A DNA stretch of 40,023 nucleotides from Pseudomonadota bacterium (GCA_009839635.1 VXPJ01000046.1:1-40023); one strand, 5' to 3'. Positions 9,293 to 39,867 are shown, numbered from the stretch's first letter. Notes: generated by a model from the sequence alone, not told the origin. A program made the numbers and translations.

Positions 9293-9304
9293 TCCCGCTT
9301 TTTT

Positions 9305-9761: not shown

Positions 9762-9798
9762 AAGGCGCGGGTTCAGGCCTGAACTCTTGGTGCGCCTT
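9762..9798 (-). terminator. hairpin terminator of the TonB-dependent receptor gene
   Basis: AAGGCGC (9762-9768) pairs with GCGCCTT (9792-9798, overlapping the stop codon). An inner palindrome TTCAGGCCTGAA is present, and a T-run follows on the minus strand (GGAAGTTTTGGG). Confidence 0.45.
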
Positions 9799-20485: not shown

Positions 20486-20611
20486 GTATGTTCTCAAACG
20501 GGTTCCGGTCCGGGGGTTCTCTCGGCAATCCCCCGCAAGACTGCGGTCACCGTGGCGGGAAATTATAAATCAGGCGCGCTCGAGGTTGCCATTCACCTCG
20601 CATGAGGTGAG

Positions 20612-23080: not shown

Positions 23081-23201
23081 AACAACCTCCAGCAAAGCGC
23101 TGGAACGTATTCATCGTTGAAATTCATTGTCCGCATCGGGATTGGCATGTCAAGGCGCGGGCTGGCGCATTTCACGCTGGTCAGCGCCTGTGATCCCCAT
23201 T

Positions 23202-25589
23202 ATGCTACGGAGCATGGTTGCGGATTCGGGTATGCCAGGACCACACAGCCCGCACGTGGCGGGCACAGGGCCGAATGCGACTGCCCCGCAAGGCCTGCTG
23301 CACAAGGTGAGTGCGGCCGATACCGGTGTCATTGACAGACCCGTGCTGACCCCGCATCTCGAGTACCGGATCCTCGACGCCGAGCGCGTGCTGCTCGTCT
23401 CCGAATCCTTCAACACGCTGCTGCACGGCCCGTTCTACGGCTCGCTGCTGGCGCTGCTGGATGGCACGCACAGCCACGACGAGATCACATCCACCCTGGG
23501 GTCGCAGTGGGTTGGCCAGGATCCTGAGGTCTGGCTCAAATCCCTTGCATCGCGAGGCTACATCGTTTCAGGTGAATACCGCATGGCCCGCGAGCGCGCG
23601 GCCTGGTGGTCCTCGCTGGGGGCCTCCCCTCGGTTTGTCGAGGAGCGCCTGGGAAGCGCAGGCGTGAGCGTGGCCGGGGACGAGGAGTGTGCCCTCACGG
23701 ATGCGCTGGAGTCGATGGGCGTGGCCGCAGGTCCAGGATACGAGGATCTCCGTGTGGTGGTCTGCGAGGACTACCTCGATGCAGTGCATGCGGACACGAA
23801 CCGCGCACAGATGGACTCGGGGCAGCCCTGGATGCTGGCCCGTCCGAAGGGGACCAGTCCGCTCATCGGCCCGGTGTTTTGCCCGGGCACGGGCGGGCCG
23901 TGCTGGAATTGCCTCGCTTACCGCCTGCAAAACCACCAGGAGGTCCATACTTTCGTGCGCAACCGCGAGGGCGAGGCGGGCGCATTTCGTGCCTTCGCCA
24001 TCGAGCCCGGGCTGCTGGAGGCGGTGCACGCACTGATCGCGGCCGAGATCGCCAAGTGGCTGGTGTTCGCCGAGCGTGCCCCGATTCACTCGAACGCGAT
24101 CTCGCTTGAGTTCGGCCCGCTGAAAACGACACACCATCCCGTGCGCCGGCGCCCGCAGTGCCCGGCGTGTGGTGAGGAGGCACACTACCGCGCGGATCGC
24201 CCGGCGCAGGTGGTGCAGCTCAAGCCGAGCCCGAAGGATGTGCAAAACAGCGGCGGGCTTCGCGCGGTCCATCCGGAACAGACCCTGGCGCGCTACTCCC
24301 ACCTGATCAGCCCGGTCAGCGGCGTGGTCAGCTGGCTGGAGCGCACCACCGAGGTCAGCGACCCCTGGCTGCACGTGCACTGGGCCGGCTCCAACCTGGC
24401 GCTTCGCATCAAGAGCCTGAGTTCGCTGCGGCGCAGCCTTCGAAGCAAGAGCGCGGGCAAGGGGAGCACGCCCGAGCAGTCGCAGGCGAGCGCGCTTTGC
24501 GAGGCCATCGAGCGCTATTCGGGCGCCTTCCACGGCGATGAGATCCGCACCCGCAAGCGCTATTCGGAATTCAAAGGCCAGGATGAAGATGGACAGGCCA
24601 TCCATCCGAACGAGGTACAGCTGTTCAGTGACCACCAGCTTGAGCACGCCGATGAAATCAATGCCCGCGCACACCCCTACAACATCATTCCCCCGCACTT
24701 TGATGCGCAAGCCGAGATCGACTGGTCGCCGGTGTACTCGCTCACCCGCGCGCGCCACTACTACCTGCCGACCTCGATCCTCTACGGCATGACCCCCGAG
24801 CAGCGCGGCCCGGGCGATCTGTGGGCGGACTCGAACGGCTGTGCGGCCGGCAACACGCTGGAGGAGGCTATCCTGCAGGGCTTTCTCGAGCTGGTGGAGC
24901 GCGATGCCTTCTCGATCTGGTGGTACAACCGCCTGCGCTGTCCGGGAGTCGATCTTGAGAGTTTCGACGACGCCTATCTGGCCGGTGCAGCGGACTACTA
25001 CAGGACGCTCGAGCGCGACATGTGGCTGCTCGACGTCAGCGCCGATTTCCCCATCCCGGCCTTCGTGGCGCTGTCGCGCAGAACCGACACGCAACCCGAA
25101 GACATCCTCTACGGGGCCGGTGCGCATACCGATGCGCGCATCGCCGCCCTGCGTGCGGTGTGCGAGATGAACCAGTGCCTGACCTGGGTGCCGCGCCCGA
25201 AAACCGGGCACACCGGCTACGGAGTCGATGACCCGATGTGCCTCGCCTGGTGGCAGAACGCGAGGCTTGAGGCACACCCTTACCTCGCCCCGGATCCCGG
25301 CGCGCCTGTACGCTGTGCCGCGGACTATCCGCTGCCCGAAACCGACGACATCAAGGAGGACGTCGAGCACTGCTGTGCACTGGTGGCCGACAAGGGCCTG
25401 GAGATGCTGGTGCTCGAGCAGACCCGGCCCGACATCGGCATGCCGGTGGCCCGCGTCATCGTGCCGGGCATGCGCCACTTCTGGGAGCGCTTTGCCCCGG
25501 GGCGCCTGTACGAGGTGCCGGTGCAGATGGGCCGGCGCACGGCACCGCTGGCCGAGTCCGAACTCAACCCCGTGGCGGTCATCGCCTGA
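23202..25589 (+). CDS. fused E1-like (SagC-type) / YcaO (SagD-type) azoline-forming cyclodehydratase
   Basis: The N-terminal half has an RRE-like segment and CWNC...CPAC zinc motifs. The C-terminal half has YcaO motifs SAGKGSTPEQSQASALCEAIERYSG and GCAAGNTLEEAILQGFLELVERDAFSIWWYN. The start is uncertain: track TTG 23127, candidate ATGs at 23202, 23214 and 23232. Confidence 0.9.
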   Translation: MLRSMVADSGMPGPHSPHVAGTGPNATAPQGLLHKVSAADTGVIDRPVLTPHLEYRILDAERVLLVSESFNTLLHGPFYGSLLALLDGTHSHDEITSTLGSQWVGQDPEVWLKSLASRGYIVSGEYRMARERAAWWSSLGASPRFVEERLGSAGVSVAGDEECALTDALESMGVAAGPGYEDLRVVVCEDYLDAVHADTNRAQMDSGQPWMLARPKGTSPLIGPVFCPGTGGPCWNCLAYRLQNHQEVHTFVRNREGEAGAFRAFAIEPGLLEAVHALIAAEIAKWLVFAERAPIHSNAISLEFGPLKTTHHPVRRRPQCPACGEEAHYRADRPAQVVQLKPSPKDVQNSGGLRAVHPEQTLARYSHLISPVSGVVSWLERTTEVSDPWLHVHWAGSNLALRIKSLSSLRRSLRSKSAGKGSTPEQSQASALCEAIERYSGAFHGDEIRTRKRYSEFKGQDEDGQAIHPNEVQLFSDHQLEHADEINARAHPYNIIPPHFDAQAEIDWSPVYSLTRARHYYLPTSILYGMTPEQRGPGDLWADSNGCAAGNTLEEAILQGFLELVERDAFSIWWYNRLRCPGVDLESFDDAYLAGAADYYRTLERDMWLLDVSADFPIPAFVALSRRTDTQPEDILYGAGAHTDARIAALRAVCEMNQCLTWVPRPKTGHTGYGVDDPMCLAWWQNARLEAHPYLAPDPGAPVRCAADYPLPETDDIKEDVEHCCALVADKGLEMLVLEQTRPDIGMPVARVIVPGMRHFWERFAPGRLYEVPVQMGRRTAPLAESELNPVAVIA

Positions 25590-25600
25590 GGCACCGGGGC

Positions 25601-27934
25601 ATGAATACACCCGAACATCCGACGTTTGCGATGCGCTTTGGCGAGTGGGTGATCGCCTGGCGCTGGCCGATCATCGTGGCCTCGCTGGTGCTGGTGGCCC
25701 TCGCTGCAAGCGGCATCGCGCGATTTGAGTTCTCCGCCAACTACCGCATCTTCTTCGATGGTGACAACCCGCAACTGCTGGATCTGGAGGCGCTTGAGAA
25801 AACCTACGGCAAGAACGAGAACCTCGCGTTCCTGATCGTCCCCGACGATGGTGACGCCACCTCGCAAAACGCGCTCTCGGCCACCGTCTGGCTGACCGAG
25901 GCCGCCTGGCGAACGCCCTATTCGCGACGCGTGGACTCGCTCGCCAACTTCCAGTACACCACCGCCGACGGCGATGACCTGTACGTGCGCGACCTCATCG
26001 ACCCGCAAACACTGGACGATGCCGAAGTGCGCGAGCAGATCCGGGCCATCGCGCTGTCCGACCCCAGGATCGCCGGCAGCATCCTCGGGCGAGGCGGTGA
26101 TGTCAGTGTCGTCAACGTCACCCTGGAGCCGCCGGAGGAGGGACTGCTCGAGGCCGTGGCGGAAGTGACCGAATACGCCCGCAAGGTGGCTGCCGAGGGG
26201 GAGCAGCGCTTCCCGGGCATCGACCTTCGCATCGTCGGCACGGTCATGGTCAGCCAGACCTTTGTCGAGGCCTCGGTCGACAGCCAGAAGATTTTCCTGC
26301 CGGCCAGCCTCGTGCTCATGGCCGTGATTCTTGGCCTGCTCGTCCGCAGCTGGACGGGTGTGGCCGCGACCGGCCTGGTGATCGTCTTTTCCATCCTCGT
26401 ATCCCTAGGCGGTGGCGTGTGGCTCGGCATGCCGTTCTCGCCGCCCATCTCGCCGGCCCCGACCATCGTGCTGATGATCGTCGTGGCCAACTGCGTGCAC
26501 CTGCTGGTGGCCCTGCAACAGCGGCTTCGCGCGGGCGACTCCAAGAATGAGGCCATCGTCGAGTCGCTCAGATACAACCTGCACCCGGTGTTTCTGGCAA
26601 GCCTGACCACCGCGCTCGGGTTTTTGAGCATGAATTTCTCCGAGGTGCCGCCCTACCGTCATCTCGGCAACTTCATCGCCATCGGCATCGTCGCCTCCTT
26701 CACGCTCTCGGTGACCTTCCTGCCGGCCCTGATCTCGCTGTTGCCGTTTCGCGCACGCCCTGAACGAAAGCTGGGTGCGGTCACCATCGAGCGCCTCGCC
26801 AACACCGTGCTGCGCTACAGGACTGCGCTGTTCGTCACCTGGCTGGTGATCGTTCCGGTCATGCTCACGGCCATTCCCCGCAACGAGCTCAGCGACGTGC
26901 TGGTGCACTTTTTCGATGAGGGCGTGGAGTTTCGCCAGGACACCGATTTCATGGACGAGCACCTGAGCGGCAACACCCTGCTGGAGTACTCGCTGCACGC
27001 TCCCGAGGAAGGCGGGGCCACCCACCCGGATTTCCTGACCGAGATCGCCCGGTTTGCCGAGTGGTACCGTGAACAGCCCCCGGTGCGCCACGTCGCGGTC
27101 ATCACCGACACCTTCCAGCAACTCAACATGAGCATGCACGGCGATGATCCCGCGGCCTACCGTCTCCCGGAAAGCCAGGAGCTCGCGGCGCAGTACCTGT
27201 TGCTGTACGAGCTGTCGCTGCCGCAGGGCCTGGACATGAACAACCAGATCGACCGCTCGAGGTCGGCGACGCGCGTGTCGGTCTCGGCCGAGACGCTGTC
27301 CTCCCGGGAGGTGCTGGAGCTGAATTCGCACGCCAACGCCTGGCTGGCCGAGAACGCATCGGACATTACCGAGATCAACAGCACTGGGCCGGCGACCCTG
27401 TTCGCCTATATCGGACAGCGCAACATCCGCGCCATGCTGATTGGCACCGTGCTGGTGCTGGTGGCGATTTCCGCCATCCTGCTGATCGCCCTGCAGTCGA
27501 TTCGCCTGGGCCTGATCAGCATCGTGCCCAACCTGGTGCCGGCGGCGCTGGGCTTCGGGGTCTGGGGGTTGACGGTCGGGCAGGTGGGGCTTTCGCTCTC
27601 GGTCGTGGTCGCCATGACCGTCGGCATCGTCGTCGACGACACGGTGCATTTTCTCAGCAAGTACCAACGGGCGCGCCGCGAATATGGCCAGGCGCCCGAG
27701 GAAGCCATTCATTATGCCTTCGATACGGCCGGGCGCGCACTGCTCACCACCACGCTCGTGCTGGTCGCCGGCTTCCTGATTTTCGTGTTCTCGCCGTTCG
27801 TACCCACCGCACAGGTGGGCGTGCTGACCGCGATGATCATCGGCTTTGCGCTGGTGGCCGATCTGACCCTCTTGCCGGCACTGCTGATGCTGGTGGACCG
27901 CACGCCCGGAAAGTCCTCCGCGGCCTCACCCTGA
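25601..27934 (+). CDS. RND-superfamily / MMPL-type exporter (COG1033-like)
   Basis: 777 aa with two blocks of about six TM helices separated by large loops, and an N-terminus typical of 'predicted exporters of the RND superfamily'. It starts 12 nt after the ycaO stop, so an operon is likely. Confidence 0.9.
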   Translation: MNTPEHPTFAMRFGEWVIAWRWPIIVASLVLVALAASGIARFEFSANYRIFFDGDNPQLLDLEALEKTYGKNENLAFLIVPDDGDATSQNALSATVWLTEAAWRTPYSRRVDSLANFQYTTADGDDLYVRDLIDPQTLDDAEVREQIRAIALSDPRIAGSILGRGGDVSVVNVTLEPPEEGLLEAVAEVTEYARKVAAEGEQRFPGIDLRIVGTVMVSQTFVEASVDSQKIFLPASLVLMAVILGLLVRSWTGVAATGLVIVFSILVSLGGGVWLGMPFSPPISPAPTIVLMIVVANCVHLLVALQQRLRAGDSKNEAIVESLRYNLHPVFLASLTTALGFLSMNFSEVPPYRHLGNFIAIGIVASFTLSVTFLPALISLLPFRARPERKLGAVTIERLANTVLRYRTALFVTWLVIVPVMLTAIPRNELSDVLVHFFDEGVEFRQDTDFMDEHLSGNTLLEYSLHAPEEGGATHPDFLTEIARFAEWYREQPPVRHVAVITDTFQQLNMSMHGDDPAAYRLPESQELAAQYLLLYELSLPQGLDMNNQIDRSRSATRVSVSAETLSSREVLELNSHANAWLAENASDITEINSTGPATLFAYIGQRNIRAMLIGTVLVLVAISAILLIALQSIRLGLISIVPNLVPAALGFGVWGLTVGQVGLSLSVVVAMTVGIVVDDTVHFLSKYQRARREYGQAPEEAIHYAFDTAGRALLTTTLVLVAGFLIFVFSPFVPTAQVGVLTAMIIGFALVADLTLLPALLMLVDRTPGKSSAASP

Positions 27935-28044
27935 TCCGCCCTTTTGCCGGGGCGAATGCCGGGAAACCCGAACCGCCTGACTGCAGCGGCCAAGCCATCA
28001 GGGGCTTAACTTCCGGAGTTCGCTGACCTAGACTGTCCACTACC

Positions 28045-28482
28045 ATGGCAAAAGCGAGAGCCATCGACATCCTGCGGATCTTCCACCGCTTCCCGGACCA
28101 GGCGGCCTGCATCGAGCACCTGGAGAAAATCCGCTGGGGAGACCGGCCCCGTTGCCCGCATTGCGCAAGCGTCCGTGTAGCCAGAAAGGCAGACTCAGGC
28201 CGTGTCGGGCGCTGGAACTGCTACGGTTGCAAGTCCAGCTTCAACGTCCTTTCGGGCACGCTGTTCGAGAAGACCCGCATCCCGTTGCAAAAATGGTTTC
28301 TGGCGGTCGGCCTGATCGTCCATGCCAGGAAAAACCTGTCCAGCTACCGGCTGGCCCGCAGCCTGGTTCTGAACCAGAAAACGGCATGGTTCATGGAACA
28401 GCGGATTCGCGCCGAAATGGCCAACAAGCAGAGCAAAATCCACCTGCAGGGCATCTTCGAGGGGGACGAGACATTCAAGTAG
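28045..28482 (+). mobile_element. IS1595-family transposase remnant (zinc-ribbon/HTH part only)
   Basis: FPDQAACIEHLEKIRWGDRPRCPHCAS...WNCYGCKSSFNVLSGTLFEKTRIPLQKWF matches the IS1595 N-terminal zinc-ribbon domain. The ORF stops at ...EGDETFK, where the DDE (ISXO2-like) domain should begin. No terminal inverted repeats were found. Confidence 0.7.
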
Positions 28483-28571
28483 GCGCAGGGCCCCGCACGA
28501 GATCGTTCAACCTAAAAGCGGACCCCGGGGTCGTGCAAAGACCCGGTCAAGCCCCTAACTACTTAATTATC

Positions 28572-28600
28572 TTGAGTGGTGCAGGTGAACGCGCTAGCAT
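28572..28600 (+). promoter_or_regulatory. candidate sigma70-type promoter for the precursor gene
   Basis: TTGAGT (28572-28577), a 17-nt spacer, then TAGCAT (28595-28600), about 48 nt upstream of the ATG at 28649. Confidence 0.3.
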
Positions 28601-28648
28601 GAATCCAACAACAACACGATTTGCGATGTATAACTAAGGAGGATTGCC

Positions 28649-28900
28649 ATGAGAAGCGGCGATGACATGCTTAAGCAGATTGTTGAGAAGTCTGCCCTGG
28701 ACACTGAATTCAGGCAACAGCTTCTCGATGATCCGAAATCTACCATCAGCGCAGAGTTGGGCATTTCCATGCCCGAGTCGATGAACGTTGTGGTCCACGA
28801 GAGCGACATGCAGACGGTGCATCTTGCTCTGCCACCGGATCCGAACATCACCGAAGAACAGCTCGAGGCGATTTCCGCCGGGCTGTGCTGCTGCTGGTAA
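28649..28900 (+). CDS. NHLP-type (nitrile-hydratase-like leader) RiPP precursor, predicted core LCCCW
   Basis: AAGGAGG lies 7 nt upstream of the ATG. The leader ...FRQQLLDDPKSTISAELGISMPESMNVVVHESDMQTVHLALPP...ITEEQLEAISAG resembles NHLP leaders that end in a GG-type site. The last five codons (28883-28897) encode L-C-C-C-W. Confidence 0.85.
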   Translation: MRSGDDMLKQIVEKSALDTEFRQQLLDDPKSTISAELGISMPESMNVVVHESDMQTVHLALPPDPNITEEQLEAISAGLCCCW

Positions 28901-28974
28901 CACCGGTGACCGGCCATTAGCCGGTCCAGACGCAGGCCATCCTCGCCTGCGCCGATCTGCTTTTATCTAGACTG

Positions 28975-29005
28975 ACCCTTCGTCCCGCACCGGGGCGGAG
29001 GGTTT
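28975..29005. terminator. strong hairpin between convergent genes (possible bidirectional terminator)
   Basis: ACCCTTCGTCCC (28975-28986) pairs with GGGGCGGAGGGT (28992-29003), including two G-U pairs, over a 5-nt loop. Smaller hairpins lie at 28908-28926 and 28931-28951, the latter followed by CTGCTTTT. Confidence 0.4.
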
Positions 29006-29027
29006 CGTCCGCTTGCCCGGGACGAAT

Positions 29028-30167
29028 TCAGAAACTGACCGCACCGGACAGCACCATGAACACGTAGGCCTTGGCTTTTCGCAGTTCATCCTCGGAGATC
29101 ACCAGCTTGATGTGGTGGATGCCACGCAGCAGCACAAAGCGCCCGGACTTCGCAAACAGCGTCGTCGGCTTGCTCACCCACGTGGCCAGCTCGGCCAGCT
29201 TGCCCCGGTCCACCAGCGCCTCCTGGCCCAGCGCCTCAAGGAACGGGTCCCAGTCGGTCAGGCCATCGAGCCAGTAGCGGGAATCTTTCGTATAGCGCTG
29301 CTTGACGATCAGCGTCAGGCCCAGCGTCGGACCCAGGCCCTGCTCCTGGACGTCGATATTGATGCCGGTGCGAACGATGTCCGTGCGCTTCGCGAATCGC
29401 TTGAGCACCGCATCGACGGCTGCAATGTCCCCGGGCCAGCCGGTGTTCTCAAGATACTCGCCAAGCTGTGCGCTCGAGCGAAAGCCCATGACCGCCAGGC
29501 GTATGGCTTGCGAGCGCGAGGGAAACACACCGAACGAGTCCATGCGCGTATCCCCGGGCTGCATCCGGTAGCTGCGCTCGATGTGCCCGCGATGGGCCTC
29601 GTCCATCGACCAGCCAAGACAGGACACCAGCGCATCCGCGACCAGGGCAACCTCGCCGTGCTGCTCGCAGCCCCCGAGTATCGGGCGCTCGCCAGGGCGC
29701 AAAAACATGCCCGGGAAGGGCGGCTTGCCCGGCCCGGCCGAACCGATGTCGTATTCGAGCATGAGCTTTCGCCCGACCACCTCGCGAAGCGGCGAGGGTT
29801 CGGCTTCCATCTGGCGGAACAGGCGGGCGATCGCGCACGCCAGTGCATCGCCGGGATCCGCCTTCGCACGGGCAAGGAATGGTTCGGCCGATCGCGTGCC
29901 GGCAGCCAGCGAGGCGCCAAAATCCGCCAGCGGCGCTGTCTCATGCAGCGGTAGTTCGAAACCAAAGGGAAGGGCCGCCATGGTGATCGGAAGTTTGGCG
30001 GCGCAATCGAGTACTCGGGTCCATTGGGAGTCGCCGATCAGCACCGGCGAGATTCGCTCGCGAAAGTGCTCGAGCAAGTCGGCCATGCTGCCGCCTTCAT
30101 CGGCCAGGCGCTCCTGGGTCAGCAGGATGGCCTCGTCGATGCTGATGTCCTCTGGGGCAGATGCCAT
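29028..30167 (-). CDS. uncharacterised protein (379 aa), candidate PT-barrel/ABBA-like fold
   Basis: Last gene of the minus-strand operon, 11 nt after the upstream stop, with GAGGAAG as Shine-Dalgarno. No cofactor motif recognised. Five beta-hairpin-like segments occur at roughly 56-78-aa spacing. Confidence 0.7.
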   Translation of the reverse strand: MASAPEDISIDEAILLTQERLADEGGSMADLLEHFRERISPVLIGDSQWTRVLDCAAKLPITMAALPFGFELPLHETAPLADFGASLAAGTRSAEPFLARAKADPGDALACAIARLFRQMEAEPSPLREVVGRKLMLEYDIGSAGPGKPPFPGMFLRPGERPILGGCEQHGEVALVADALVSCLGWSMDEAHRGHIERSYRMQPGDTRMDSFGVFPSRSQAIRLAVMGFRSSAQLGEYLENTGWPGDIAAVDAVLKRFAKRTDIVRTGINIDVQEQGLGPTLGLTLIVKQRYTKDSRYWLDGLTDWDPFLEALGQEALVDRGKLAELATWVSKPTTLFAKSGRFVLLRGIHHIKLVISEDELRKAKAYVFMVLSGAVSF

Positions 30168-30178
30168 GTCTTACTTCC

Positions 30179-31474
30179 TCAGCTGCTCAGCGCTCGTGCG
30201 AGGCGCCCCAGCGCCTCGATGCAGAAGGCCGTGGTCACGGGCTCCGAGCCGTGCCCGAACTGCCCGACCACCCCCCACTTAAGCGTCTGGTCGCCGAAAG
30301 CGAGCAGTTCCGGCCAGCTTCCGTCCTCGTGCTGTGCACCCAGCAGGCGGGCCAGCTCGACTTTCATGTCGATACGGCCCAGGCACTGCACGTTGTCGAG
30401 CGCCGAGACTGCCTGGGCGCTTTGCAGCAGGTTGCCAAACCCGCCCTCGGGGTCGCGAAGACCGAGAATACGGTCTGCCAGGATCGGGCCCAGGGACTCG
30501 AGCGCGGGGCGAGCGCGCACCATTGTGCGCGTGATGGCGTAGTAGATCGCTATCGTATCGGGATACCATTTCGAGGTGTCGTGCACGCGGTCCTCGCGTA
30601 CCAGTTCCTCCAGCCAGCGCTGCGCGGGACGGGTCTGCGGGTGATCGCCGAGGTAGGCGATGACGTTCGCATTCACCACCGGGTCGGCCTCGATGCGAAA
30701 TTTTGACACGACATCGGGCTCGTCCTCGCCCAGCACCCAGGTCAGGAAACGGCCCTGCGCATCGCGGTTCGACAGGATCTTTGCCACGTTTCGCCCGAGC
30801 GCGATCCACGGATGCGAACCAAGGATCAGCGAGCACAGGGTCGTGCTGTCCAGATCCTGGGGCAGGTGGCGGTAGTAGCGCCACATGCCGGGATATTCCA
30901 TGGTGTCCATCAGGTACGCCCGGCTCGCCTCGCACAGGGTTCTTGCACGAGCATCCCCGCAGCCTTGCAGGGCCAGTACGCAAAATGCCGTCACGAACGC
31001 GGGGCGCTCGAAATGCCGGGGCACCTCGGGATCGGCAATGTTGAAGCGAATGCAGTGCCAGGCACCGTCATCGGTGATGCTGGATTGCAGGAATTCGAGA
31101 CCACGACCGATACTGTTGCGGGCGGCCGACACCAGGTCGTCGGCGCTCGCCCCGGAGTCCACCGCCCGGGCCGGTGCGGGAGTGCGCATCGGCGGGGCCG
31201 GATCGTGCAGCGTCTTGCGAAGAAACTCCAAGGAGGCCACGCCGGTTTTCGCAGCTTCGCGTTCGACCGGCGTGCGCTTACTCACCGGCGGCAGCACAAG
31301 GTGGGCTTCGGTCTCGCTCGCCTGGTGCACGAACACCTGCTGGTCGGCGGAGATCTTCACGCCGAGGGCCTCCTCGATGGCCTGCCTGGGATCATCGATG
31401 AGGCGTTGTCGAAAGCCTTCGTCCCGGCCCGCACGCAAAATGAGCTGGCCTGCGCCATCGATGGGAGGGTTCAT
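30179..31474 (-). CDS. NHLP-leader-like domain fused to a prenyltransferase/squalene-oxidase-repeat (alpha/alpha-toroid) domain
   Basis: Residues ~8-65 align without gaps to the precursor leader (20 of 60 identical by hand: FRQ.L.DDP...I...LG...V.VH...HL.LPP). The remaining ~350 aa carry repeats DDGAWH, EYPGMWRYY, DAQGRF, DPEGGFG, HEDGSWP and a DLDSTT motif resembling DxDDTA. Confidence 0.8.
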   Translation of the reverse strand: MNPPIDGAGQLILRAGRDEGFRQRLIDDPRQAIEEALGVKISADQQVFVHQASETEAHLVLPPVSKRTPVEREAAKTGVASLEFLRKTLHDPAPPMRTPAPARAVDSGASADDLVSAARNSIGRGLEFLQSSITDDGAWHCIRFNIADPEVPRHFERPAFVTAFCVLALQGCGDARARTLCEASRAYLMDTMEYPGMWRYYRHLPQDLDSTTLCSLILGSHPWIALGRNVAKILSNRDAQGRFLTWVLGEDEPDVVSKFRIEADPVVNANVIAYLGDHPQTRPAQRWLEELVREDRVHDTSKWYPDTIAIYYAITRTMVRARPALESLGPILADRILGLRDPEGGFGNLLQSAQAVSALDNVQCLGRIDMKVELARLLGAQHEDGSWPELLAFGDQTLKWGVVGQFGHGSEPVTTAFCIEALGRLARALSS

Positions 31475-31528
31475 GGGAGTGCTTTCACAAGCCTGCTGTG
31501 GAGTCGAAGTGGGCCGTCCGGGTTCGGA

Positions 31529-34471
31529 TCAGGCGATTTGCCTTTTGACCAGTTCCCTGAACACCCCGTCCTCTTCCATGAGTTCCTCGAAGCTGCCGTG
31601 CTGCGCCACCTTGCCGCCGGACAGCACGTAGATACGGTCCGCCTGCTCAAGCGTGGACAGGCGGTGGGCGATGACCAGCCGGGTGGAGGTCAGGTCGGTC
31701 AGGTTGTCCATGACCCGGGCCTGGTTTTCGTTATCCAGCCAGTTGGTGGCCTCGTCGAACAGCATGATCCGCGGCTTGCCGATCACCGAGCGGGCGATGG
31801 TGACGCGCTGGCTCTCGCCGCCAGACAGCACCGAGCCGCTGGCGCCGACCATGGTCATCATACCCATGGGCATGGCCTTGATCTCTTTTTCGACTTCGGC
31901 GGTTCGCACCGACTCCCAGACCTCATCGGTGGTGATTCCGTCGTGATGGCTGACCAGGTTGTCCCAGATATCCAGGGGGTGAAGCCCCACGGCTTGCGGC
32001 ACCGCGCCGATCTTGCGGCGCAACTGGCGCAGGTTCAAGTGGCGCACATCACGCCCGTCGTAGTACACCGCACCGGCAGTAGGCCGGTCGATGCCGAGCG
32101 CGAGGCGAAACAGGGTGCTCTTGCCGGTGCCGGACTCGCCAGCGATGGCGATGAACTCGCCCGCGCGTGCGTGGATCGTGACATCGTCGAGAATCAGCGG
32201 GCCGTCCGGGTCGTAGCGAAACGAGATGCGGTCGAACAGGAGGTCTCCGCCCAGGTATTCCACCGGCTCGCCTTCGGTCTCGGTTTCGGGATCTGCAGCC
32301 AGCAGCGGGCGCATCTGCTTGAACGCCGGCAACAGGGCCGCAACGGTCCCCAGAGATTCGCCAAGGCGTGCGATCGCGCTCTGGAAGGCGATGAAGACCA
32401 GGTAGACGACCAGAAAATCACCGACCGGCATGATGCGCTCGCCGACGGTCACTGCGGCCAGCAGCAAGAAGGCTCCCGCGAGAAACGGCAATGCCGCGGA
32501 AAACGCCCGCGAATGCCCCTCCAGCACGCTCAAATCGAGTTCCGCACGTTTTTGCTCGCGGTAGTCCTGGGCCCACATGGCAAACGCGGAGCCTTCGGCA
32601 TTTTCCACGCGCAGCTTGGCAAAGCCGCCAACGATCTGGAACAGGCGCCCGGCGACACGCCGTGACGCACGGATCATGCGCCCGTACGGAGCAATCTGCA
32701 GGACACCGAGCATCCCTGTAATGAGCAGCGACCCCAGACTGAAGGCCAGGGCGAGACCGCCGAGGGCGGCATCGTAGAAGAAGATGACGGCAAACACCGG
32801 GACCAGGAAGATGACTGACAGGAAGCTGTCGGCGACCACTCCCTGCAGGCCGTCTCGAAGATTCTGGAAGGTCATGCCCGACATCGCCAGGTCGCCTGAC
32901 GGATGGCGGTGCAGGATGGCCGGCGGCAATCGCATGAGGCGGTCCCAGAAGGCCGCTTCTGCACGCGAGGCCGAGCGCCCCTCAAGACGCATCATCGCCG
33001 TACTTTGCGCGAGGTGCAGCAGTGCCCCGAGAAGGCCGAACCCGGCCAACACCCAGGCCACGGCGTAGATCGCACCGGCAGTGCCGCCTGCGGCGATTTC
33101 ATGGGCGACAAAGCCAAGCGCCAGGGCCGGCAACAATTGGATCAGCCCGTAGGGAAGTCCTGCGAGCACCAGCCGGGCAATGTCCGGTCCCGATCCCTGC
33201 AGGGCCAGGCCCAGCAGGTCCGCCGGTTTCACCTCGCCTGCAGGCAAGGGGCGGTAGAACATCCACGCGTCCTCACGCAGTGCGGTAGCGTGTTCCTGGC
33301 TGACGCGAACCGTGCGCTTGCTGACCGGGTCGATTTCACGGTAGCCGCCGAACACCCCCGGCAGCAGAGCCACGGGCTGGCCGTCCTCAGCACGAAACCC
33401 CAGCATCGCGTGGCTGTCGGTACGCCACCACCGGTCCTCGTCCTTGAGCCGCACGCGCCTTGCACGCACTCCGGAGGCATCCAGCACGTCGACCAAGCCG
33501 AGCGAAGCCTGCGAAGGCCCGGAACGTGCGGGAATCTTGAAATCGATACCCTCGTGGCGGCCGATGACCTGCAGGGCATCGACCAAGGTGGTGTCTTCAA
33601 GGCCGGCATAGCGGCCCACCGGCTGGTCGTAGAGGTTGAACAGGCGCGCGCGGGCCGCCTTCTCGGCCGTGCGCCGGCTCGTTGTGCGGGCACGTTCGAG
33701 GTTCACATCGTCGACCACGGCCAGTCGTCGGTTCAGGCGCTCCAGGGTGAAGGCGACCTCATGAAAATACGAAAGTGCGCCCTGCAGGCGGCCCTGCTCG
33801 GCCAGGGTTTGCGTGCTCACGCATTCCAGCGTGGTCTCCTCCAGCGTGGTCAGCCAGCTGGTGCGGGTCAGCGGCAGCACCGCATCCCCTGCGCCGCTGG
33901 CCTCGGCCAACTCCATCGGATCGACGATGTCCATGAACAGCAGCGCACTGCCCGGGTGCGGGGACGCCCACACCACCTTGCGCTGCACCGACAGCGTGCT
34001 GTGTGCCGGGACCTGTATCGCACCGGCCTCGGCCAGGGCCGTCGGGCGCGGTGCGGGCGTGGCGAATCGCGACAGCGTGTCGGTCATCTCGCTCAGCCAG
34101 GCATCGGTCTGTTCGGCAAGCTCAGCCGGGTGCACCTTGGACAGCAGGGAGACCGGCAGGCGTTTCAGCAAGGTGCCGGGCAGGCCCTTGGCTACCAGGC
34201 TCAGCGTGGTTCCATCCTGCGCGTCAGGTTCGCGCGCAGGAACCCCTGGCAGGAACCAGCCCGCCTCACGGCGCAGCAGATGCTGTGGAGACGACTGCTC
34301 CACACCGTCCTTGAGCTCGACTAAAAACAGGTTGACGGTGCCCCGGTCAATGAGCCAGATGCTGTCCGCATCGTCGAGCTTCACCGGCAGATTGCCGGCA
34401 CAGGGCACGTCAGTCCCCAGGCGAGCCGCGAGTTCGGCGATCGAGGAGTAGGCGGGCCGGGTGTCCTGCAT
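31529..34471 (-). CDS. NHLM-type ABC transporter with N-terminal cyclic-nucleotide-binding-like domain
   Basis: 980 aa with a cNMP-like N-terminus, a TM domain, and Walker A GESGTGKST, signature LSGGESQR and Walker B IMLFDEAT. The start overlaps the upstream stop (TAATG at 34471). It resembles TIGR03797 (from memory). Confidence 0.9.
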   Translation of the reverse strand: MQDTRPAYSSIAELAARLGTDVPCAGNLPVKLDDADSIWLIDRGTVNLFLVELKDGVEQSSPQHLLRREAGWFLPGVPAREPDAQDGTTLSLVAKGLPGTLLKRLPVSLLSKVHPAELAEQTDAWLSEMTDTLSRFATPAPRPTALAEAGAIQVPAHSTLSVQRKVVWASPHPGSALLFMDIVDPMELAEASGAGDAVLPLTRTSWLTTLEETTLECVSTQTLAEQGRLQGALSYFHEVAFTLERLNRRLAVVDDVNLERARTTSRRTAEKAARARLFNLYDQPVGRYAGLEDTTLVDALQVIGRHEGIDFKIPARSGPSQASLGLVDVLDASGVRARRVRLKDEDRWWRTDSHAMLGFRAEDGQPVALLPGVFGGYREIDPVSKRTVRVSQEHATALREDAWMFYRPLPAGEVKPADLLGLALQGSGPDIARLVLAGLPYGLIQLLPALALGFVAHEIAAGGTAGAIYAVAWVLAGFGLLGALLHLAQSTAMMRLEGRSASRAEAAFWDRLMRLPPAILHRHPSGDLAMSGMTFQNLRDGLQGVVADSFLSVIFLVPVFAVIFFYDAALGGLALAFSLGSLLITGMLGVLQIAPYGRMIRASRRVAGRLFQIVGGFAKLRVENAEGSAFAMWAQDYREQKRAELDLSVLEGHSRAFSAALPFLAGAFLLLAAVTVGERIMPVGDFLVVYLVFIAFQSAIARLGESLGTVAALLPAFKQMRPLLAADPETETEGEPVEYLGGDLLFDRISFRYDPDGPLILDDVTIHARAGEFIAIAGESGTGKSTLFRLALGIDRPTAGAVYYDGRDVRHLNLRQLRRKIGAVPQAVGLHPLDIWDNLVSHHDGITTDEVWESVRTAEVEKEIKAMPMGMMTMVGASGSVLSGGESQRVTIARSVIGKPRIMLFDEATNWLDNENQARVMDNLTDLTSTRLVIAHRLSTLEQADRIYVLSGGKVAQHGSFEELMEEDGVFRELVKRQIA

Positions 34472-36681
34472 TATCCCGACTTGACCAGCTTGTAATAGGT
34501 GCCGTCGCGATCTGCAATCAGGTCATCGTGCGTGCCGCGCTGTACCACGACCCCCTGATCGAGCACGATGATTTCGTCGCAGTCGCGCACCGTGCTGAGG
34601 CGATGTGCCACGATCAGGCAGGTCACGCCGCGACGGCGCAAGGCATCATCGACATGCTCCTCGGTCGCCGCATCGAGCGCGCTGGTGGCCTCGTCCAGGA
34701 TGAGTACGGTCGGGTTGCCGACCAGCGCGCGGGCGATTTCCAGGCGCTGGCGCTGGCCGCCGCTGAAGTTCACCCCACCTTCCTCGACCTCGGTCGCATA
34801 GCCTTGCCGGCGAAGCAGGATCTCGTCGTGGATCCAGGCATCGCGCGTGGCGGCGAAGATGGCCTCATCCGGGATGGCCGAATTCCACAAGGTGATATTG
34901 TCGCGCAGCGACGCGGAAAACAGCACGACCTCCTGGTCCACCATGGAGATGGACTGGCGCAGGACTTCCTCCGGGATCTCATCGCGCAGGTGCCCGTCGA
35001 ACAGGATTTCGCCGGACCAGGGCTGGTACACCCCGGACACCAGGCGCGCCAGGGTCGACTTGCCGGAACCGCTCGGGCCCACCACGGCAACGCGCTGCCC
35101 GGGCTGGATCGTCAGGTTGAACTCCTTGAGCAGGGGCGGGCGGCTCCTGTTGAATCCGAAGGTGACGTCGCGCAGTTCGAGTTGCCCGGTCAGCTGCAGG
35201 CGCCCGTTGAACGTCGGGATGGACTCCGATTCCGGGCTTCGGCGGCGGATCACGGGATCTTCAGCGGCCCGCGAGATGTCCTCGAGTCGCTGCAGGTCGG
35301 TCTCCAGGGCCTGGCGCCTGTCGGCGAACTCCAGAAACTGCCCGATGGGCGACAGGAACATCTCCGCCAGGATGTAGAACCCGACCAGGGCACCCAGGCT
35401 CATTTCCCCGGCCAGCACCAGGCTTCCGCCGATGCCGAGGATCACGGCGGCCCGAAGAATGGCCACCAGCCCCGGCAGCGCTGTGTTGAATGCGCTGAGC
35501 TCAAAGTAGTGCTGGCGCGCCTCCAGTTCGCGCGCCTGCTGGCCGCTCCAGCGTGAGAAGAAGCGGTCGTCCGCACCGGTCATGCGAAGGGTGTCCGCAT
35601 GGCTGAGCATCTGCATGCCCACGCCGATCAGCAATCCCTGTTCGCGGCGCATCGACTGGATGCGCACCGTGCGAAGCGAATTCAAAAAGTGCACGACCAT
35701 GCCGTGAAGGACGGCGAGTAACACCACGATCAGGCTCAGCAGGGGTTCGTACACCAGCATCACGATCAGCAGTACCGCACTCATGACCATGTCGACGAGC
35801 AGCACCAGGAACTGGTCAGTGAGATTTTTCGCGATGCGGTCGATGGAGGACACCCGGTCGGTCAGGTCACCGGTCAGGCGGTGCTCGAAAAATTCCACCG
35901 GCAGGCGCAGCAGGCGCGTCAGGTTGCGGTTGTATCCAATCACCGAAATCCGCACCGCCAGGCGCTTCAAAAACCGGTGCTTGAGCAGGGACAGCAGGTA
36001 GACCAGCACCCCGGCACCCAGCAGCGCGCCCACCAGCCCGCCCCAGGCGCCGTGGTTTTCCAGCACGTCGTCGACGAAGATGCTGAGCACTGCAGGCACG
36101 ACCAGGGCCAGCAACGTCACCATCAGGGCGGTGGCCCCCACTCCGGCAAGCACCGTCCAGGAGCCGACCAGCAGGGTGCCAAGTTGTGTGAACAGGCCGG
36201 GGGCCTCGCCGCCGGCCTTGAAATCCTTGCCGCGCTTGAAGCGCAAGGCGATCCCGCTGTAGCTCTTTTCGAACTCCTCGGCGCTGACCTTGCGCCGCCC
36301 GGTGGACGGGTCGTTGAGGTAGAAGTACCGCTCGTCGAAGCCTTCAAGGACCAGGAAATGGCTGAACTGCCAGAACAGGATCAGCGGCAGCTCCAGCTTT
36401 TTCAACGACTCGGAACGTACGCTCAGGCCACTGCATTCCAGCCCGTAGTGGCGAGAGGCCCGCAACAGGCTCGCCGCGCTGCTGCCGTCGCGGCTGACCT
36501 CGCATTTCTCTCGCAACTCGGTCAGCGGCACCCAACGCCCGAAAAAGCCCAGTACGCTGCCGAGGCTCGCCGCCCCACATTCGGAGGCGTGCATCTGCAG
36601 CATCACGGGTGTGGCGATCCGGTGCTTGACGGAATCCGAGGTGGCCTGATCCCCGGTGCCCTTGGAGGCACTCGGCGCCAT
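34471..36681 (-). CDS. NHLM-type ABC transporter with C39 peptidase domain
   Basis: N-terminal C39 motifs QMHASECGAASLGSVL (catalytic Cys) and HFLVLEGF...YLNDP (His/Asp). ABC motifs GPSGSGKST, FSGGQRQR and LILDEATS. It resembles TIGR03796 (from memory). Confidence 0.9.
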   Translation of the reverse strand: MAPSASKGTGDQATSDSVKHRIATPVMLQMHASECGAASLGSVLGFFGRWVPLTELREKCEVSRDGSSAASLLRASRHYGLECSGLSVRSESLKKLELPLILFWQFSHFLVLEGFDERYFYLNDPSTGRRKVSAEEFEKSYSGIALRFKRGKDFKAGGEAPGLFTQLGTLLVGSWTVLAGVGATALMVTLLALVVPAVLSIFVDDVLENHGAWGGLVGALLGAGVLVYLLSLLKHRFLKRLAVRISVIGYNRNLTRLLRLPVEFFEHRLTGDLTDRVSSIDRIAKNLTDQFLVLLVDMVMSAVLLIVMLVYEPLLSLIVVLLAVLHGMVVHFLNSLRTVRIQSMRREQGLLIGVGMQMLSHADTLRMTGADDRFFSRWSGQQARELEARQHYFELSAFNTALPGLVAILRAAVILGIGGSLVLAGEMSLGALVGFYILAEMFLSPIGQFLEFADRRQALETDLQRLEDISRAAEDPVIRRRSPESESIPTFNGRLQLTGQLELRDVTFGFNRSRPPLLKEFNLTIQPGQRVAVVGPSGSGKSTLARLVSGVYQPWSGEILFDGHLRDEIPEEVLRQSISMVDQEVVLFSASLRDNITLWNSAIPDEAIFAATRDAWIHDEILLRRQGYATEVEEGGVNFSGGQRQRLEIARALVGNPTVLILDEATSALDAATEEHVDDALRRRGVTCLIVAHRLSTVRDCDEIIVLDQGVVVQRGTHDDLIADRDGTYYKLVKSG

Positions 36682-36682
36682 C

Positions 36683-37234
36683 TCAGGAGGGCCTCATCCG
36701 AAGGCGTGCGATCGGCGACTGACGGCCCACTTCAATGGTGACCTCGCATTCCTTGCGTGCAGGCACAGCGGCCCCGGGGGGCGCATCGAGCCGGATGCGC
36801 AGGCGGTGCACCGACAGCGGCGCACGGCCCTCGAACATCGCCAGGAACTCGGTCAGGGGCAGCACGGAAATGCCCGCCACTTCCCCTTCCAGGGTGTGGA
36901 GATGCCCGTCGGCGCCACTGAACTCGATCTTCGCAGGCTGGCCGGCCTCGATCTGAGCGGCGGCATCGCGCTTGATCCACACCATCGCCTGCAGGCTGTG
37001 CTCGCCCGCCAGCGTGCTTTCACCGGGTCCGGCCAAGACCCCATCGAGCGTCAGGCTGCGGGCCACGCTGCCAAACACCAGCCAGACCAAAAGCACCACC
37101 AATACCCCGGCAATGGCGGCCACCAGCGCACGCTCATTGGGGGTGGAGATGGTGAGCAGCCGGTCCAGCTGTTCGCGTTCTTCCTTGGCCTCGGCGACCA
37201 TGTTGTGAAATGACTCGAATGGATTGTTGAACAC
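36683..37234 (-). CDS. short HlyD-like / NHLM secretion adaptor protein (183 aa)
   Basis: GTG start, one TM helix (ALVAAIAGVLVVLLVWLVF), then barrel-sandwich-like segments (...AMVWIKRDAAAQIEAGQPAKIEF...GEVAGIS...). Its stop lies 1 nt before the ABC start. Confidence 0.65.
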   Translation of the reverse strand: MFNNPFESFHNMVAEAKEEREQLDRLLTISTPNERALVAAIAGVLVVLLVWLVFGSVARSLTLDGVLAGPGESTLAGEHSLQAMVWIKRDAAAQIEAGQPAKIEFSGADGHLHTLEGEVAGISVLPLTEFLAMFEGRAPLSVHRLRIRLDAPPGAAVPARKECEVTIEVGRQSPIARLRMRPS

Positions 37235-37422
37235 GACTTAGAGCAGCCTCCTTACCTGGATCAAGCAACGTCCCAGGAGACATCCCATCCGGGATGGCAT
37301 TGAAACTTTTAGCGATTATAAGCAATCTCGCCCAAGAAAGATCAAATTCTCACCCCAGCGCAGGCCATGGCCTGGAGCTTCGCACACCGGTCACTTCACC
37401 TGTTCCGGGCACTCAAGGTACA

Positions 37423-38319
37423 ATGTCACACGTCCATCACGCGCCTGTGCAGATGTTTCCTGATCACGAAACCGCCCGAAACCGGCGGGTCCACGACGAC
37501 CCGACTAAGGCTTTTCCATGCGCGCGCAGGGGGTGGCTCGGGACCCTGGCCCTGATCCTCGCGGCACTGGGACCGGCGCAGACACCGGTACTGGCGGAGA
37601 CGGCGGAAGAAAAAGGGCTCAGGATTGCGCTGGAGGCCGAGGCCCGCAACGACGGCTTCGGGGATTTCACCGCGGGCATGACGATGGTGCTGCGCGATCG
37701 GTACGGGCGCGAGAGTATCCGCCAGATGCGCTTCAAGGTGCTGGAGGTGGCAGGCGACGGGGACAAGAGCCTGTTTGTGTTCGATCAGCCGCGAGACGTG
37801 CAGGGCACCGCCCTGCTGACCCACGCCCACATCAACACCCAGGACGACCAGTGGCTGTACCTGCCGGCCCTGAAGCGGGTCAAGCGCATCAACGCCTCGA
37901 AGCGTTCCGGGTCCTTCATGGGCAGCGAGTTCTCCTACGAGGACATGAGCACGCCGGAAGTGGAGGAATACACCTACAAGTACCTACGCGACGAGCCCTG
38001 CGGCGAGCTCAGCTGTACCGTGACCGAGCAGGTGCCGCTGGACAAGAACTCCGGATACAGCCGCAAGATCGTCTGGCAGGACACCGGTGAGCTTCGCGTC
38101 TGGAAGATGGAACTGTACGACCGCAAGGACTCGCACCTGAAGACACTCACGTTCGCCAACTACGAGCAATACCTGGACCAGTTCTGGCGGGCCGGGGAAC
38201 AGACCATGGTGAACCACCTGACCGAGGCCAGCACGGTGCTGCACTGGACCGACTTCAGGTTTCGCACCAACCTCGACGACAGCGAATTCAACAAACTGGC
38301 ACTGCGACGCGTGCGCTGA
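37423..38319 (+). CDS. LolA-like 'outer membrane lipoprotein-sorting' family periplasmic protein
   Basis: Signal peptide ...LALILAALGPAQTPVLA. Signature DDQWLYLPALKRVKRINASKRSGSFMGSEFSYEDM (LolA_like family, from memory). Start taken at ATG 37423; the track start 37294 is probably too far upstream. Confidence 0.85.
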   Translation: MSHVHHAPVQMFPDHETARNRRVHDDPTKAFPCARRGWLGTLALILAALGPAQTPVLAETAEEKGLRIALEAEARNDGFGDFTAGMTMVLRDRYGRESIRQMRFKVLEVAGDGDKSLFVFDQPRDVQGTALLTHAHINTQDDQWLYLPALKRVKRINASKRSGSFMGSEFSYEDMSTPEVEEYTYKYLRDEPCGELSCTVTEQVPLDKNSGYSRKIVWQDTGELRVWKMELYDRKDSHLKTLTFANYEQYLDQFWRAGEQTMVNHLTEASTVLHWTDFRFRTNLDDSEFNKLALRRVR

Positions 38320-39548: not shown

Positions 39549-39773
39549 TCACACCAAGCAGACATTGACTGGTATCGTTCAGCACTTGACACCATACAAC
39601 CAGAATTTGTACAGGTTCCCTTGCATGTACAAAACCGTGAGCTGACAGTGATCGTGATGATGCATGGGAAAGAAGAGGAAGTCCTAGAAATCGGTACGGT
39701 GGAAAACTTGATCCAGGGTGTGAGGATGGCTAGTATTTTGGCAACACCCCTTGCAGTTTAGACTGCAGGGCGC

Positions 39774-39803
39774 AGGGTCTCTTCGGAGGCCCTTGCTTTT
39801 TTT
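39774..39803 (+). terminator. Rho-independent terminator
   Basis: AGGGTCTC, loop TTCG, GAGGCCCT (one G-U pair), followed by TGCTTTTTTT. Confidence 0.6.
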
Positions 39804-39867
39804 GGCAGTCAGGAATGCGAACCCTTGTCGATGTCGACTGCCTTAACCTCAGTGGAGGTCATGAAGG

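Follow-up and report, generated by a model that had tools for sequence, protein, structure and literature searches.

The srp clusters, which encode a sponge-derived proteusin belonging to the peptides that ribosomes synthesize and that are modified after translation (RiPPs), are said to occur in all high-microbial-abundance sponges examined and across many phyla of bacteria, a single metagenome often holding dozens of copies. The first description is reportedly that of Nguyen et al. in 2021 (JACS). Here we analyze a stretch of bacterial DNA of 40,023 nucleotides (nt), given as one strand and hereafter called the window (VXPJ01000046.1, GCA_009839635.1), in which an earlier note had recognized, at positions 23202-37234, a peptide locus with a YcaO gene, isoprenoid-type enzymes and two export systems. 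This locus is a rearranged copy of the known srp cluster, and not a new system.

The srp family is defined by the core peptide LCCCW (bioRxiv 10.1101/2023.06.09.544420; PMC10858898), and a further account of the cluster is given in PMC9426513. Its precursor gene of 252 bp, including a variant with the motif ITEEQL, has been reported in a sponge metatranscriptome, and is the most highly transcribed RiPP-cluster gene across phyla in sponges (bioRxiv 10.1101/2023.06.09.544420). Two enzymes acting on the precursor, SrpE, have been characterized, namely SrpC, a YcaO protein that turns the three Cys residues of LCCCW into thiazolines, and SrpI, a flavin enzyme that brominates the C-terminal Trp in a leader-dependent manner (PMC10858898, PMC10286304, PMC12615548). 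Co-expression with only SrpE reportedly leaves SrpC poorly active (PMC10286304); the lack of a partner protein might, speculatively, explain this. The srp literature surveyed assigns an activity to two of about 12 conserved genes. The folds proposed below for three of the large genes would turn this cryptic RiPP into a concrete product prediction.

Gene content and conservation of the srp locus

The open reading frames (ORFs) of the window were listed, and their products were searched against the Pfam and NCBIfam/TIGRFAM profiles; the relevant TIGRFAM cut-offs are 50.9 bits for TIGR03793, 853.3 for TIGR03796, 709.4 for TIGR03797 and 156.2 for TIGR03794. The conserved unit extends from 20612 to beyond 40023, and consists of 12 conserved genes plus the remnant of an insertion sequence (IS) of the IS1595 family. 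Its features are as follows, with lengths in amino acids (aa) and the letter by which each gene is denoted in gene orders.

20612-23095, minus strand (B, AlkB-like): AlkB-type membrane di-iron hydroxylase fused to a GlnE-like nucleotidyltransferase, 827 aa, from PDB and profile matches
23127-25589, plus strand (C, YcaO): SrpC-type fused heterocyclase with wHTH/RRE, E1-like and YcaO parts, 820 aa (PF02624, E 8e-96; TIGR03604; TIGR03882)
25601-27934, plus strand (M, MMPL): MMPL/HAE3-family RND transporter with a sterol-sensing domain, 777 aa (PF03176, E 6e-35)
28045-28482, plus strand (IS): IS1595-family transposase remnant with a Zn-ribbon, 145 aa (PF12760, E 1e-11; NF033547, positions 1-70 of 215)
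28649-28900, plus strand (E, precursor): SrpE-type NHLP precursor, 83 aa, 252 bp (TIGR03793, 69.1 bits, above the cut-off)
29028-30167, minus strand (D, 379-aa): 379-aa protein with a predicted ABBA (PT-barrel) prenyltransferase fold, from AlphaFold2 and Foldseek
30179-31474, minus strand (A, toroid): NHLP leader fused to an alpha/alpha toroid, 431 aa (TIGR03793, E 5e-10, for the leader)
31529-34471, minus strand (T2, ABC2): NHLM-type ABC permease/ATPase with an unassigned N-terminal domain of 290 aa, 980 aa in total (TIGR03797, E 2e-196, 654.8 bits, below the cut-off)
34471-36681, minus strand (T1, C39-ABC): C39-peptidase ABC exporter (PCAT), 736 aa (TIGR03796, 852.8 bits; PF03412, E 3e-32)
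36683-37234, minus strand (h, short membrane): short single-pass membrane protein, 183 aa (TIGR03794, E 4e-5, model positions 6-57 of 421)
37294-38319, plus strand (F, LolA-like): LolA-like/TP_0789-like periplasmic protein of lipid-carrier type (PF17131, E 1e-58)
38319-39548, plus strand (G, 409-aa): 409-aa protein, faintly DUF1302-like, a putative outer-membrane partner (PF06980, E 0.014)
39868-40023, plus strand (I, halogenase): 5' end, 52 codons, of a SrpI-type flavin-dependent tryptophan halogenase, reaching the window end

The assignment to srp follows the precursor and the two enzymes that act on it. The precursor carries the ITEEQL variant and ends in ...EAISAGLCCCW (in the window sequence, the tail is ...PPDPNITEEQLEAISAGLCCCW), with a putative cleavage after Ala77-Gly78 that would leave the core LCCCW. 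A literature search on this core led to the papers on the sponge-derived RiPP proteusin. The last 22 aa recur unchanged in 42 related loci, and LCCCW is present in 69 matches. The heterocyclase matches LynD (4v1t, E 5e-163) and TruD (4bs9, E 1e-161) over residues 74-816, and its median identity to the YcaO proteins of related loci is 60%. The halogenase start, which reads MIQPGSQSLRKIAVVGRGTAGSLAAAS..., matches the halogenase of the related locus L007 (PF04820), with 84% identity over 49 aa by tblastn, and in L008, the closest relative of the window, the locus runs on into a halogenase to which all 390 aa of the query could be matched. Positions 39760-39806, between the 409-aa gene and the halogenase start, hold a G+C-rich hairpin with a T-run behind it (gggtctcttcggaggccc ttgcttttttt), which suggests that the halogenase is transcribed separately.

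Other cores were seen in related loci. A second precursor type, ending in ...EEQLEAISAG-MCCCGI, occurs besides LCCCW in four srp loci (L034, L039, L070 and L072), where its gene sits downstream of the 409-aa gene; because it has no Trp, it is not expected to be a substrate of the brominase. Single loci carry the variant cores LSCCW (L050) and LCCSW (L054).

The lack of an azoline dehydrogenase, remarked on before, holds beyond the window, as no dehydrogenase, TfuA or radical-SAM gene is conserved in the related loci. Within the window, no sizeable ORF matches SagB, TfuA, LanB/M/C, radical-SAM or DUF692 families. The thiazolines that the product was thus expected to retain fit the reported action of the homologous SrpC on LCCCW (PMC10858898, PMC10286304).

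All nine ORFs on which the earlier note was based are found where it placed them, by the ORF listing and the profile searches alike, and its description of four plus-strand genes (YcaO fusion, RND transporter, IS remnant and precursor) facing a minus-strand operon of five is accurate. The junctions TGA-g-ATG, TAATG and TGA plus 11 nt plus ATG are seen directly in this operon, and the 54-nt gap follows from the coordinates. On the plus strand, the MMPL gene starts 11 nt after the YcaO gene. The span 23202-37234 was too narrow, the conserved cluster adding 20612-23095, 37294-39548 and 39868 to beyond 40023. Overlooked in this way were the AlkB-like/GlnE-like fusion at 20612-23095 and, with the gene that starts at 39868, Trp bromination, the sole experimentally shown tailoring step that had been missed.

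Locus L008 belongs to a metagenome-assembled genome (MAG) of the Gammaproteobacteria and shares 94.6% nucleotide identity with the window in one alignment of 19.9 kb, colinear from 20185 to the window end. The host is a gammaproteobacterial genome. The same IS1595 remnant stands at the same position in L008 and L009, with 91-92% amino acid identity. An Rfam scan of the window gave no match, and neither did a comparison of the IS-flanked spacer with plasmids.

The usual srp order is h-T1-T2-A-B-C-D-E(reverse)-F-G-I, and that of the window, in which arrowheads denote the strand, is B< C> M> IS> E> D< A< T2< T1< h< F> G> I>. This latter order is common to L008 and L009, which have the IS remnant, and to L014 and L028, which do not, and it is therefore a lineage-specific rearrangement.

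To gauge conservation, the window proteins were mapped onto 87 related loci, and genes were counted in those that span 21 kb or more, which are 60 with the window included. The 379-aa gene is found in all 60, the YcaO gene in 59, the precursor in 57 and the AlkB-like fusion in 55; they are followed by the halogenase (50), ABC2 (48), the C39-ABC gene (45) and the short membrane protein (45). When the leftover ORFs were clustered across the 88 loci, no other gene family was present in more than 10 of them. The biosynthetic core A-B-C-D-E stays together even without exporters, e.g., in loci from Nitrospirota. The 80 loci listed from the species-representative scan are all MAGs, from Gamma- and Alphaproteobacteria, Nitrospirota, Acidobacteriota, Gemmatimonadota, Binatia, Latescibacterota, Nitrospinota and others; among the related loci, sources named after sponges include Spongia_Bin9, the SB06xx bins and the NGUY21 metagenomes.

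These counts bear on whether the toroid and 379-aa genes might adjoin the YcaO/NHLP locus by chance, an idea that can practically be dismissed. The IS remnant, which shows that the region has been rearranged, is the only point in its favor, and the idea is refuted by the co-occurrence of the two genes in 60 of 60 loci, in at least eight phyla and in several gene orders. The gene set is, by its conservation across related loci, a real functional unit, as had been proposed. It thereby withstands both checks named in the earlier note, since neither a dehydrogenase nearby nor loci of that length lacking the toroid and 379-aa genes turned up.

Predicted isoprenoid-type enzymes and the proposed product

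For the locus as a whole, we hold with moderate confidence that the best explanation is a copy of srp that encodes an isoprenoid-tailored peptide pathway. The isoprenoid part of this explanation stems from predicted folds, obtained as AlphaFold2 models that were then compared with the PDB using Foldseek. The model of the 379-aa protein has a predicted local distance difference test (pLDDT) score of 82 and contains five alpha-alpha-beta-beta repeats. Its top 50 Foldseek matches are all ABBA prenyltransferases, with a probability of 1.00, and include IptA (7w8u, the best, E 3e-6), EpzP, NphB, PriB, CymD and CloQ. A profile search with the 379-aa family in a set of 1.8 billion proteins matched 725 representative clusters. 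The family may represent previously unrecognized ABBA-fold RiPP prenyltransferases.

The second isoprenoid-type enzyme is the toroid fusion, whose model has a pLDDT of about 90 over most of the domain. Its best Foldseek matches (8pak, 8paj, AsDMS 9m7f and MstE 6sbc; E 4e-10 to 1e-8) come from monodomain class II terpene cyclases and, in drimenol synthases, from the cyclase domain. The template-modeling (TM) score to the target is 0.64-0.69 in Foldseek, and 8paj_A is also matched by profile (E 4e-6). An invariant D207-L-D209-S-T aligns with the DADST motif of the solved cyclase 8paj, and an invariant Q-x-x-D-G-S-W-P-E aligns with the QxxDG(G/S)W repeats of the squalene-hopene cyclase 2sqc. Thus, the term isoprenoid-type enzymes, applied earlier to this locus, is borne out at the level of predicted fold, with the 379-aa protein as an ABBA-type and the toroid as a monodomain class II cyclase-type protein. 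A reading of the toroid as LanC or as the beta subunit of a protein prenyltransferase was rejected as first choice; no LanC is among the top 50 Foldseek matches, and those to GGTase beta are 10^6-fold weaker than those to class II cyclases. Homologs of the fusion number more than 1000, with about 433 aa and 63-93% identity, and it turned up in 298 genomes when one representative per species was scanned.

The leader of this fusion aligns with SrpE without gaps (33% identity, residues 6-81), which raises the question of whether the protein is itself cargo, e.g., a secreted or periplasmic protein with a binding, immunity or carrier role that is exported through the C39-ABC protein after cleavage at Gly78. 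The colinear leader with its invariant Gly78 at position -1 is what such cargo would need, in most loci the toroid gene comes right after the pair of ABC genes, and alpha/alpha toroids also serve as binding domains, with the complement TED and GGTase beta further down the Foldseek list. The same leader has an invariant Arg72 at position -7, the place of the second Leu of the L(X)4L motif in SrpE, and not the hydrophobic residue used for C39 recognition; L(X)4L has been reported to bind both SrpI and C39 proteases (PMC10858898). Moreover, the invariant D207-x-D209-S-T and QW motifs are those expected of a working class II cyclase, leaderless paralogs exist, and the Nitrospirota loci keep the fusion without adjacent exporter genes. 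We therefore consider the cargo role improbable, and favor a cyclase. Its NHLP domain may either dock it to the heterocyclase RRE or to the exporter, or send this cofactor-free enzyme through the same exporter.

The third of these large proteins is the AlkB-like fusion. Its AlkB part matches 8f6t_A (E 3e-54, residues 31-374) and 8sbb_A (E 2e-36), and all the expected motifs, three His boxes and HYG, are intact (HELIHQ, EHIYVHH, NYVQHYGL and MQRHADHH). The GlnE-like part is matched by PF03710 and NF010706 (E 5e-21).

Distant relatives of the 379-aa protein, referred to below as prenyltransferase (PT)-like, extend this association beyond srp. On contigs long enough to show neighbors they always lie in an NHLP cluster, the four clusters being:

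L088: three precursors, a cytokinin-dehydrogenase-like FAD enzyme, the short membrane protein and both ABC genes
L092: a precursor ending in ...AAG-RCCC, an AlkB-like protein (44% identical to that of the window), YcaO, two PT-like paralogs and an Lcp-like oxygenase domain
L094: precursors ending in FTSVGGPIW, FTTGNNPLW and YSFNEPW, YcaO, and a leaderless cyclase with a PT-like gene
L097: four Trp-containing precursors, two PT-like genes, a cyclase and a JmjC enzyme

In L094, the stop codon of the leaderless cyclase, which has the canonical DVDDT motif, overlaps the start of the PT-like gene. In L088 and L092, the PT-like genes have neighbors with isoprenoid-related folds, namely the cytokinin-dehydrogenase-like and the Lcp-like proteins. 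Among the non-srp cores, 9 of 11 contain Trp and 4 of 11 end in it; at a Trp frequency of 1.3% this gives P ~6e-7, a value that overstates the case, as paralogous precursors are not independent. The pairing of PT-like and cyclase genes, together with the Trp-rich cores, points to a pair of RiPP-tailoring enzymes with a preference for Trp-bearing cores. If this is true, such pairs would mark out a broader, so far undescribed class of NHLP RiPPs directed at Trp, with L094 and L097 as examples.

As to the other distant loci, the short contigs L090, L091 and L093 show too few neighbors, and in L096 the genes around the cyclase-like gene have no assigned family. A metagenome scan with the leaderless cyclase of L094 returned no confirmed relative. 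The NHLP clusters of L088, L094/L095, L097 and L092, whose cores mostly contain Trp, are apparently undescribed in the literature surveyed.

These clusters also help to weigh the view that two pathways merely lie together, such that the peptide receives thiazolines and bromine only, while the PT-like, cyclase and AlkB-like proteins and the lipid transporters make and move a separate small terpenoid or hydrocarbon lipid. Sets of MMPL and LolA-like genes are also known as stand-alone lipid-trafficking modules, and the MMPL, LolA-like and 409-aa genes are not always adjacent to the cluster; furthermore, the reported activities are only those of SrpC and SrpI (PMC10286304, PMC10858898). This view does not account for PT-like genes beside NHLP precursors in L088, L092, L094 and L097, with or without lipid transporters, nor for a cyclase that itself carries an NHLP domain, nor for the intact A-B-C-D-E core without exporters in the Nitrospirota loci. 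Two separate pathways are accordingly unlikely in our judgment.

In the pathway that we favor, all isoprenoid chemistry would instead take place on the peptide. The heterocyclase, of the LynD/TruD type, would make three thiazolines with no oxidase acting afterwards, and the halogenase would brominate the C-terminal Trp under guidance of the leader, as shown for the orthologs of both. The ABBA-fold protein would then add a prenyl chain (C15 or C20), for which the Trp indole is the most likely site, and the MstE-like class II cyclase domain would fold this chain by protonation via the aspartate of DxDST. The AlkB-type domain would hydroxylate a terminal methyl of the lipid, and the fused GlnE-like domain may nucleotidylate the resulting hydroxyl. 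The C39-ABC pair and its short membrane partner would cut the precursor after Ala77-Gly78 and export the peptide across the inner membrane, from where the MMPL, LolA-like and DUF1302-like proteins would carry the lipophilic product to the outer membrane. Prenylation and cyclization of the peptide are what we infer from the folds and the gene neighborhoods. S-prenylation of Cys, one of the modifications suggested earlier, is unlikely, since thiazoline formation uses up all three Cys residues; a CaaX-like reading of C-C-C-W was dropped for the same reason, as the published work shows these residues to become thiazolines.

As a tentative prediction, which we hold with less confidence than the pathway as a whole, the mature srp product may be a meroterpenoid RiPP, i.e., a bromo-Trp tris-thiazoline pentapeptide with a farnesyl or geranylgeranyl chain cyclized on the peptide. 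The calculated [M+H]+ of the leaderless core with three thiazolines and 79Br would be 855.2754 with farnesyl and 923.3380 with geranylgeranyl, compared with 651.0876 (neutral mass 650.0803 Da) before prenylation. We know of no terpene cyclization on a ribosomal peptide described so far.

Several observations weigh against the isoprenoid-tailored pathway. The ABBA match of the 379-aa protein is at the level of fold only, with TM scores of 0.4-0.55, root-mean-square deviations of 7-9 A and 10-14% identity. This protein has no Pfam or NCBIfam match at E<=10, PTase_Orf2 and Trp_DMAT included, and no PDB profile match, and ten of its distant relatives fall into no Pfam family either. The acid motif of the toroid is DxDST and not DxDD, the third Asp being Ser in srp proteins, and the non-hydrophobic -7 position of its leader weakens the idea of its co-export. 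No prenyl-diphosphate synthase is conserved in the cluster across the 88 loci. Within +/-10 kb in the 60 loci, the MMPL gene was found in 26, the LolA-like gene in 17 and the 409-aa gene in 18, counts that are limited by these flanks. Cores without an aromatic residue occur near PT-like genes, namely RCCC in L092 and MCCCGI in four srp loci, and Trp therefore cannot be the only acceptor. Finally, the srp literature surveyed, the founding 2021 description aside, speaks only of thiazolines and bromine and makes no mention of a prenyltransferase, which is absence of evidence; some of the annotations proposed here may already stand in that founding description.

Transport genes, flanking genes and the metallophore idea

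The assignment of isoprenoid-type folds explains why lipid-type transporters stand beside a peptide cluster. The RND exporter of lipid type, singled out in the earlier note, is indeed a conserved part of the cluster. It matches the TIGR00921 and HpnN models below their cut-offs (126.6 versus 751.9 bits for HpnN). The LolA-like gene is also found in the srp loci L003, L007 and others, always followed by the 409-aa gene, whose product has 409 aa in L003 and L007 too.

In the C39-ABC exporter, the catalytic SECGAASL and His are present. Its score of 852.8 bits lies so close to the equivalog cut-off of TIGR03796 (853.3) that automatic annotation would narrowly fail to name it. The label cNMP, formerly attached to the 980-aa ABC protein, was dropped, as its first 300 aa have no Pfam match (E<=10) and no PDB match. 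The short membrane protein had been called HlyD-like, which is correct for residues 21-72 (TIGR03794, 22.7 bits versus 156) and incorrect for a full adaptor; its orthologs have 172-198 aa and always precede the C39-ABC gene. The two export routes had been regarded as independent. Given the proposed handover from PCAT to the MMPL, LolA-like and DUF1302-like proteins, they would more plausibly be consecutive, the first leading across the inner membrane and the second from the periplasm to the outer membrane.

A role of the product as a metallophore had been raised as speculation, in which the tris-thiazoline peptide would chelate a metal and be re-imported via the TonB-dependent receptor encoded at 9797-12424, about 10.8 kb upstream. 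Thiazolines sit next to each other in pyochelin and yersiniabactin, and some MMPL proteins export siderophores. The receptor itself lends no support, with a homolog in 0 of 87 related loci, although the flanks of the two nearest relatives are too short to reach it; the genes between receptor and cluster are likewise without homologs there. There is also no conserved uptake or reductase gene, and the conserved accessory genes are of lipid type, not metal type. We thus regard a metallophore as very improbable.

The TonB-dependent receptor, an autotransporter, an epimerase, a 192-aa ORF and an S8 protease were rejected as cluster members, since they have no homologs in the other loci. The last of these, an 835-aa S8 subtilase (17990-20497, minus strand), lies directly upstream of the cluster, at a position before which the flanks of L008 and L009 end; its match to PatA/PatG (E 2e-4) reaches 20 bits against a cut-off of 421. 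The autotransporter-type protein at 12745-16149 lies 4.5 kb upstream of the cluster. Loci L001/L002, which are deltaproteobacterial, have another protein with an autotransporter-type beta-domain (7330-9936) immediately upstream of their toroid gene; the two are not detectably homologous by tblastn, and their presence may be a coincidence. Between a lipoprotein-like gene and the TonB-dependent receptor lies a stretch of about 1.7 kb (8130-9796) with 48-49% G+C, compared with about 65% around it, and with ORFs of at most 76 aa; a decayed insertion is one possibility, a regulatory island another. A PAS and LuxR-type HTH regulator (2751-3929, minus strand) and an 804-aa SWM-repeat protein (4261-6675, plus strand) are, as far as tested, unrelated to the cluster.

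Comparison with known systems

With the described srp clusters, the window shares the 83-aa NHLP precursor with LCCCW, the SrpC-type YcaO protein, the start of the SrpI-type halogenase and the accessory gene set; their spread over many bacterial phyla is that of the related loci. The differences lie in arrangement. In the window, the MMPL gene and not the 379-aa gene follows the YcaO gene, the 379-aa gene comes after the toroid gene, and an IS1595 remnant stands beside the precursor.

Cyanobactins of the trunkamide type keep their thiazolines without an oxidase. The cyanobactin enzymes LynD and TruD are close full-length homologs of the window heterocyclase, and ABBA-fold enzymes of the TruF/PagF type work alongside them. 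Unlike cyanobactin pathways, the window has an NHLP and not a PatE-type precursor, no PatA/PatG proteases or macrocyclization, and cleavage and export by a C39-ABC protein; its PT-like protein is without a sequence match to known prenyltransferase families.

The HpnN-type HAE3 transporters, which take hopanoids to the outer membrane, are likewise a partial counterpart. The window MMPL protein matches their models and would carry a lipid that bears a cyclic terpenoid, but it scores far below the cut-offs and is partnered with LolA-like and DUF1302-like proteins.

ComX pheromones of Bacillus are short RiPPs with a prenylated and cyclized Trp, modified by ComQ, which is polyprenyl-synthase-like. 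The window resembles them in that a geranyl- or farnesyl-type group would be attached to the Trp of a very short ribosomal peptide. ComQ, however, does not have the ABBA fold, and ComX systems are without YcaO, halogenase and class II cyclase.

From the NHLP/TOMM-NHLM systems (Haft, Basu and Mitchell 2010, PMC2887384), the window has the TIGR03793 leader, a cyclodehydratase and two NHLM-type ABC proteins. The leader scores above its cut-off (69.1 versus 50.9 bits), both ABC proteins just below theirs, and the HlyD component well below (22.7 versus 156.2). The window differs in that SagB is absent, the HlyD component is cut to about 180 aa, and lipid-type enzymes and transporters are added.

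The merosterolic acid pathway follows the same two-enzyme logic that we predict here, i.e., aromatic prenylation and then cyclization by protonation, the latter catalyzed by MstE (PDB 6sbb-6sbg). In the window, the acceptor would be a peptide and not benzoate, and the cyclase has an NHLP leader and a DxDST in place of the DxDD motif. Like MstE, the window toroid is a monodomain protein of about 320 aa, and the two match in Foldseek with an E of ~2e-9.

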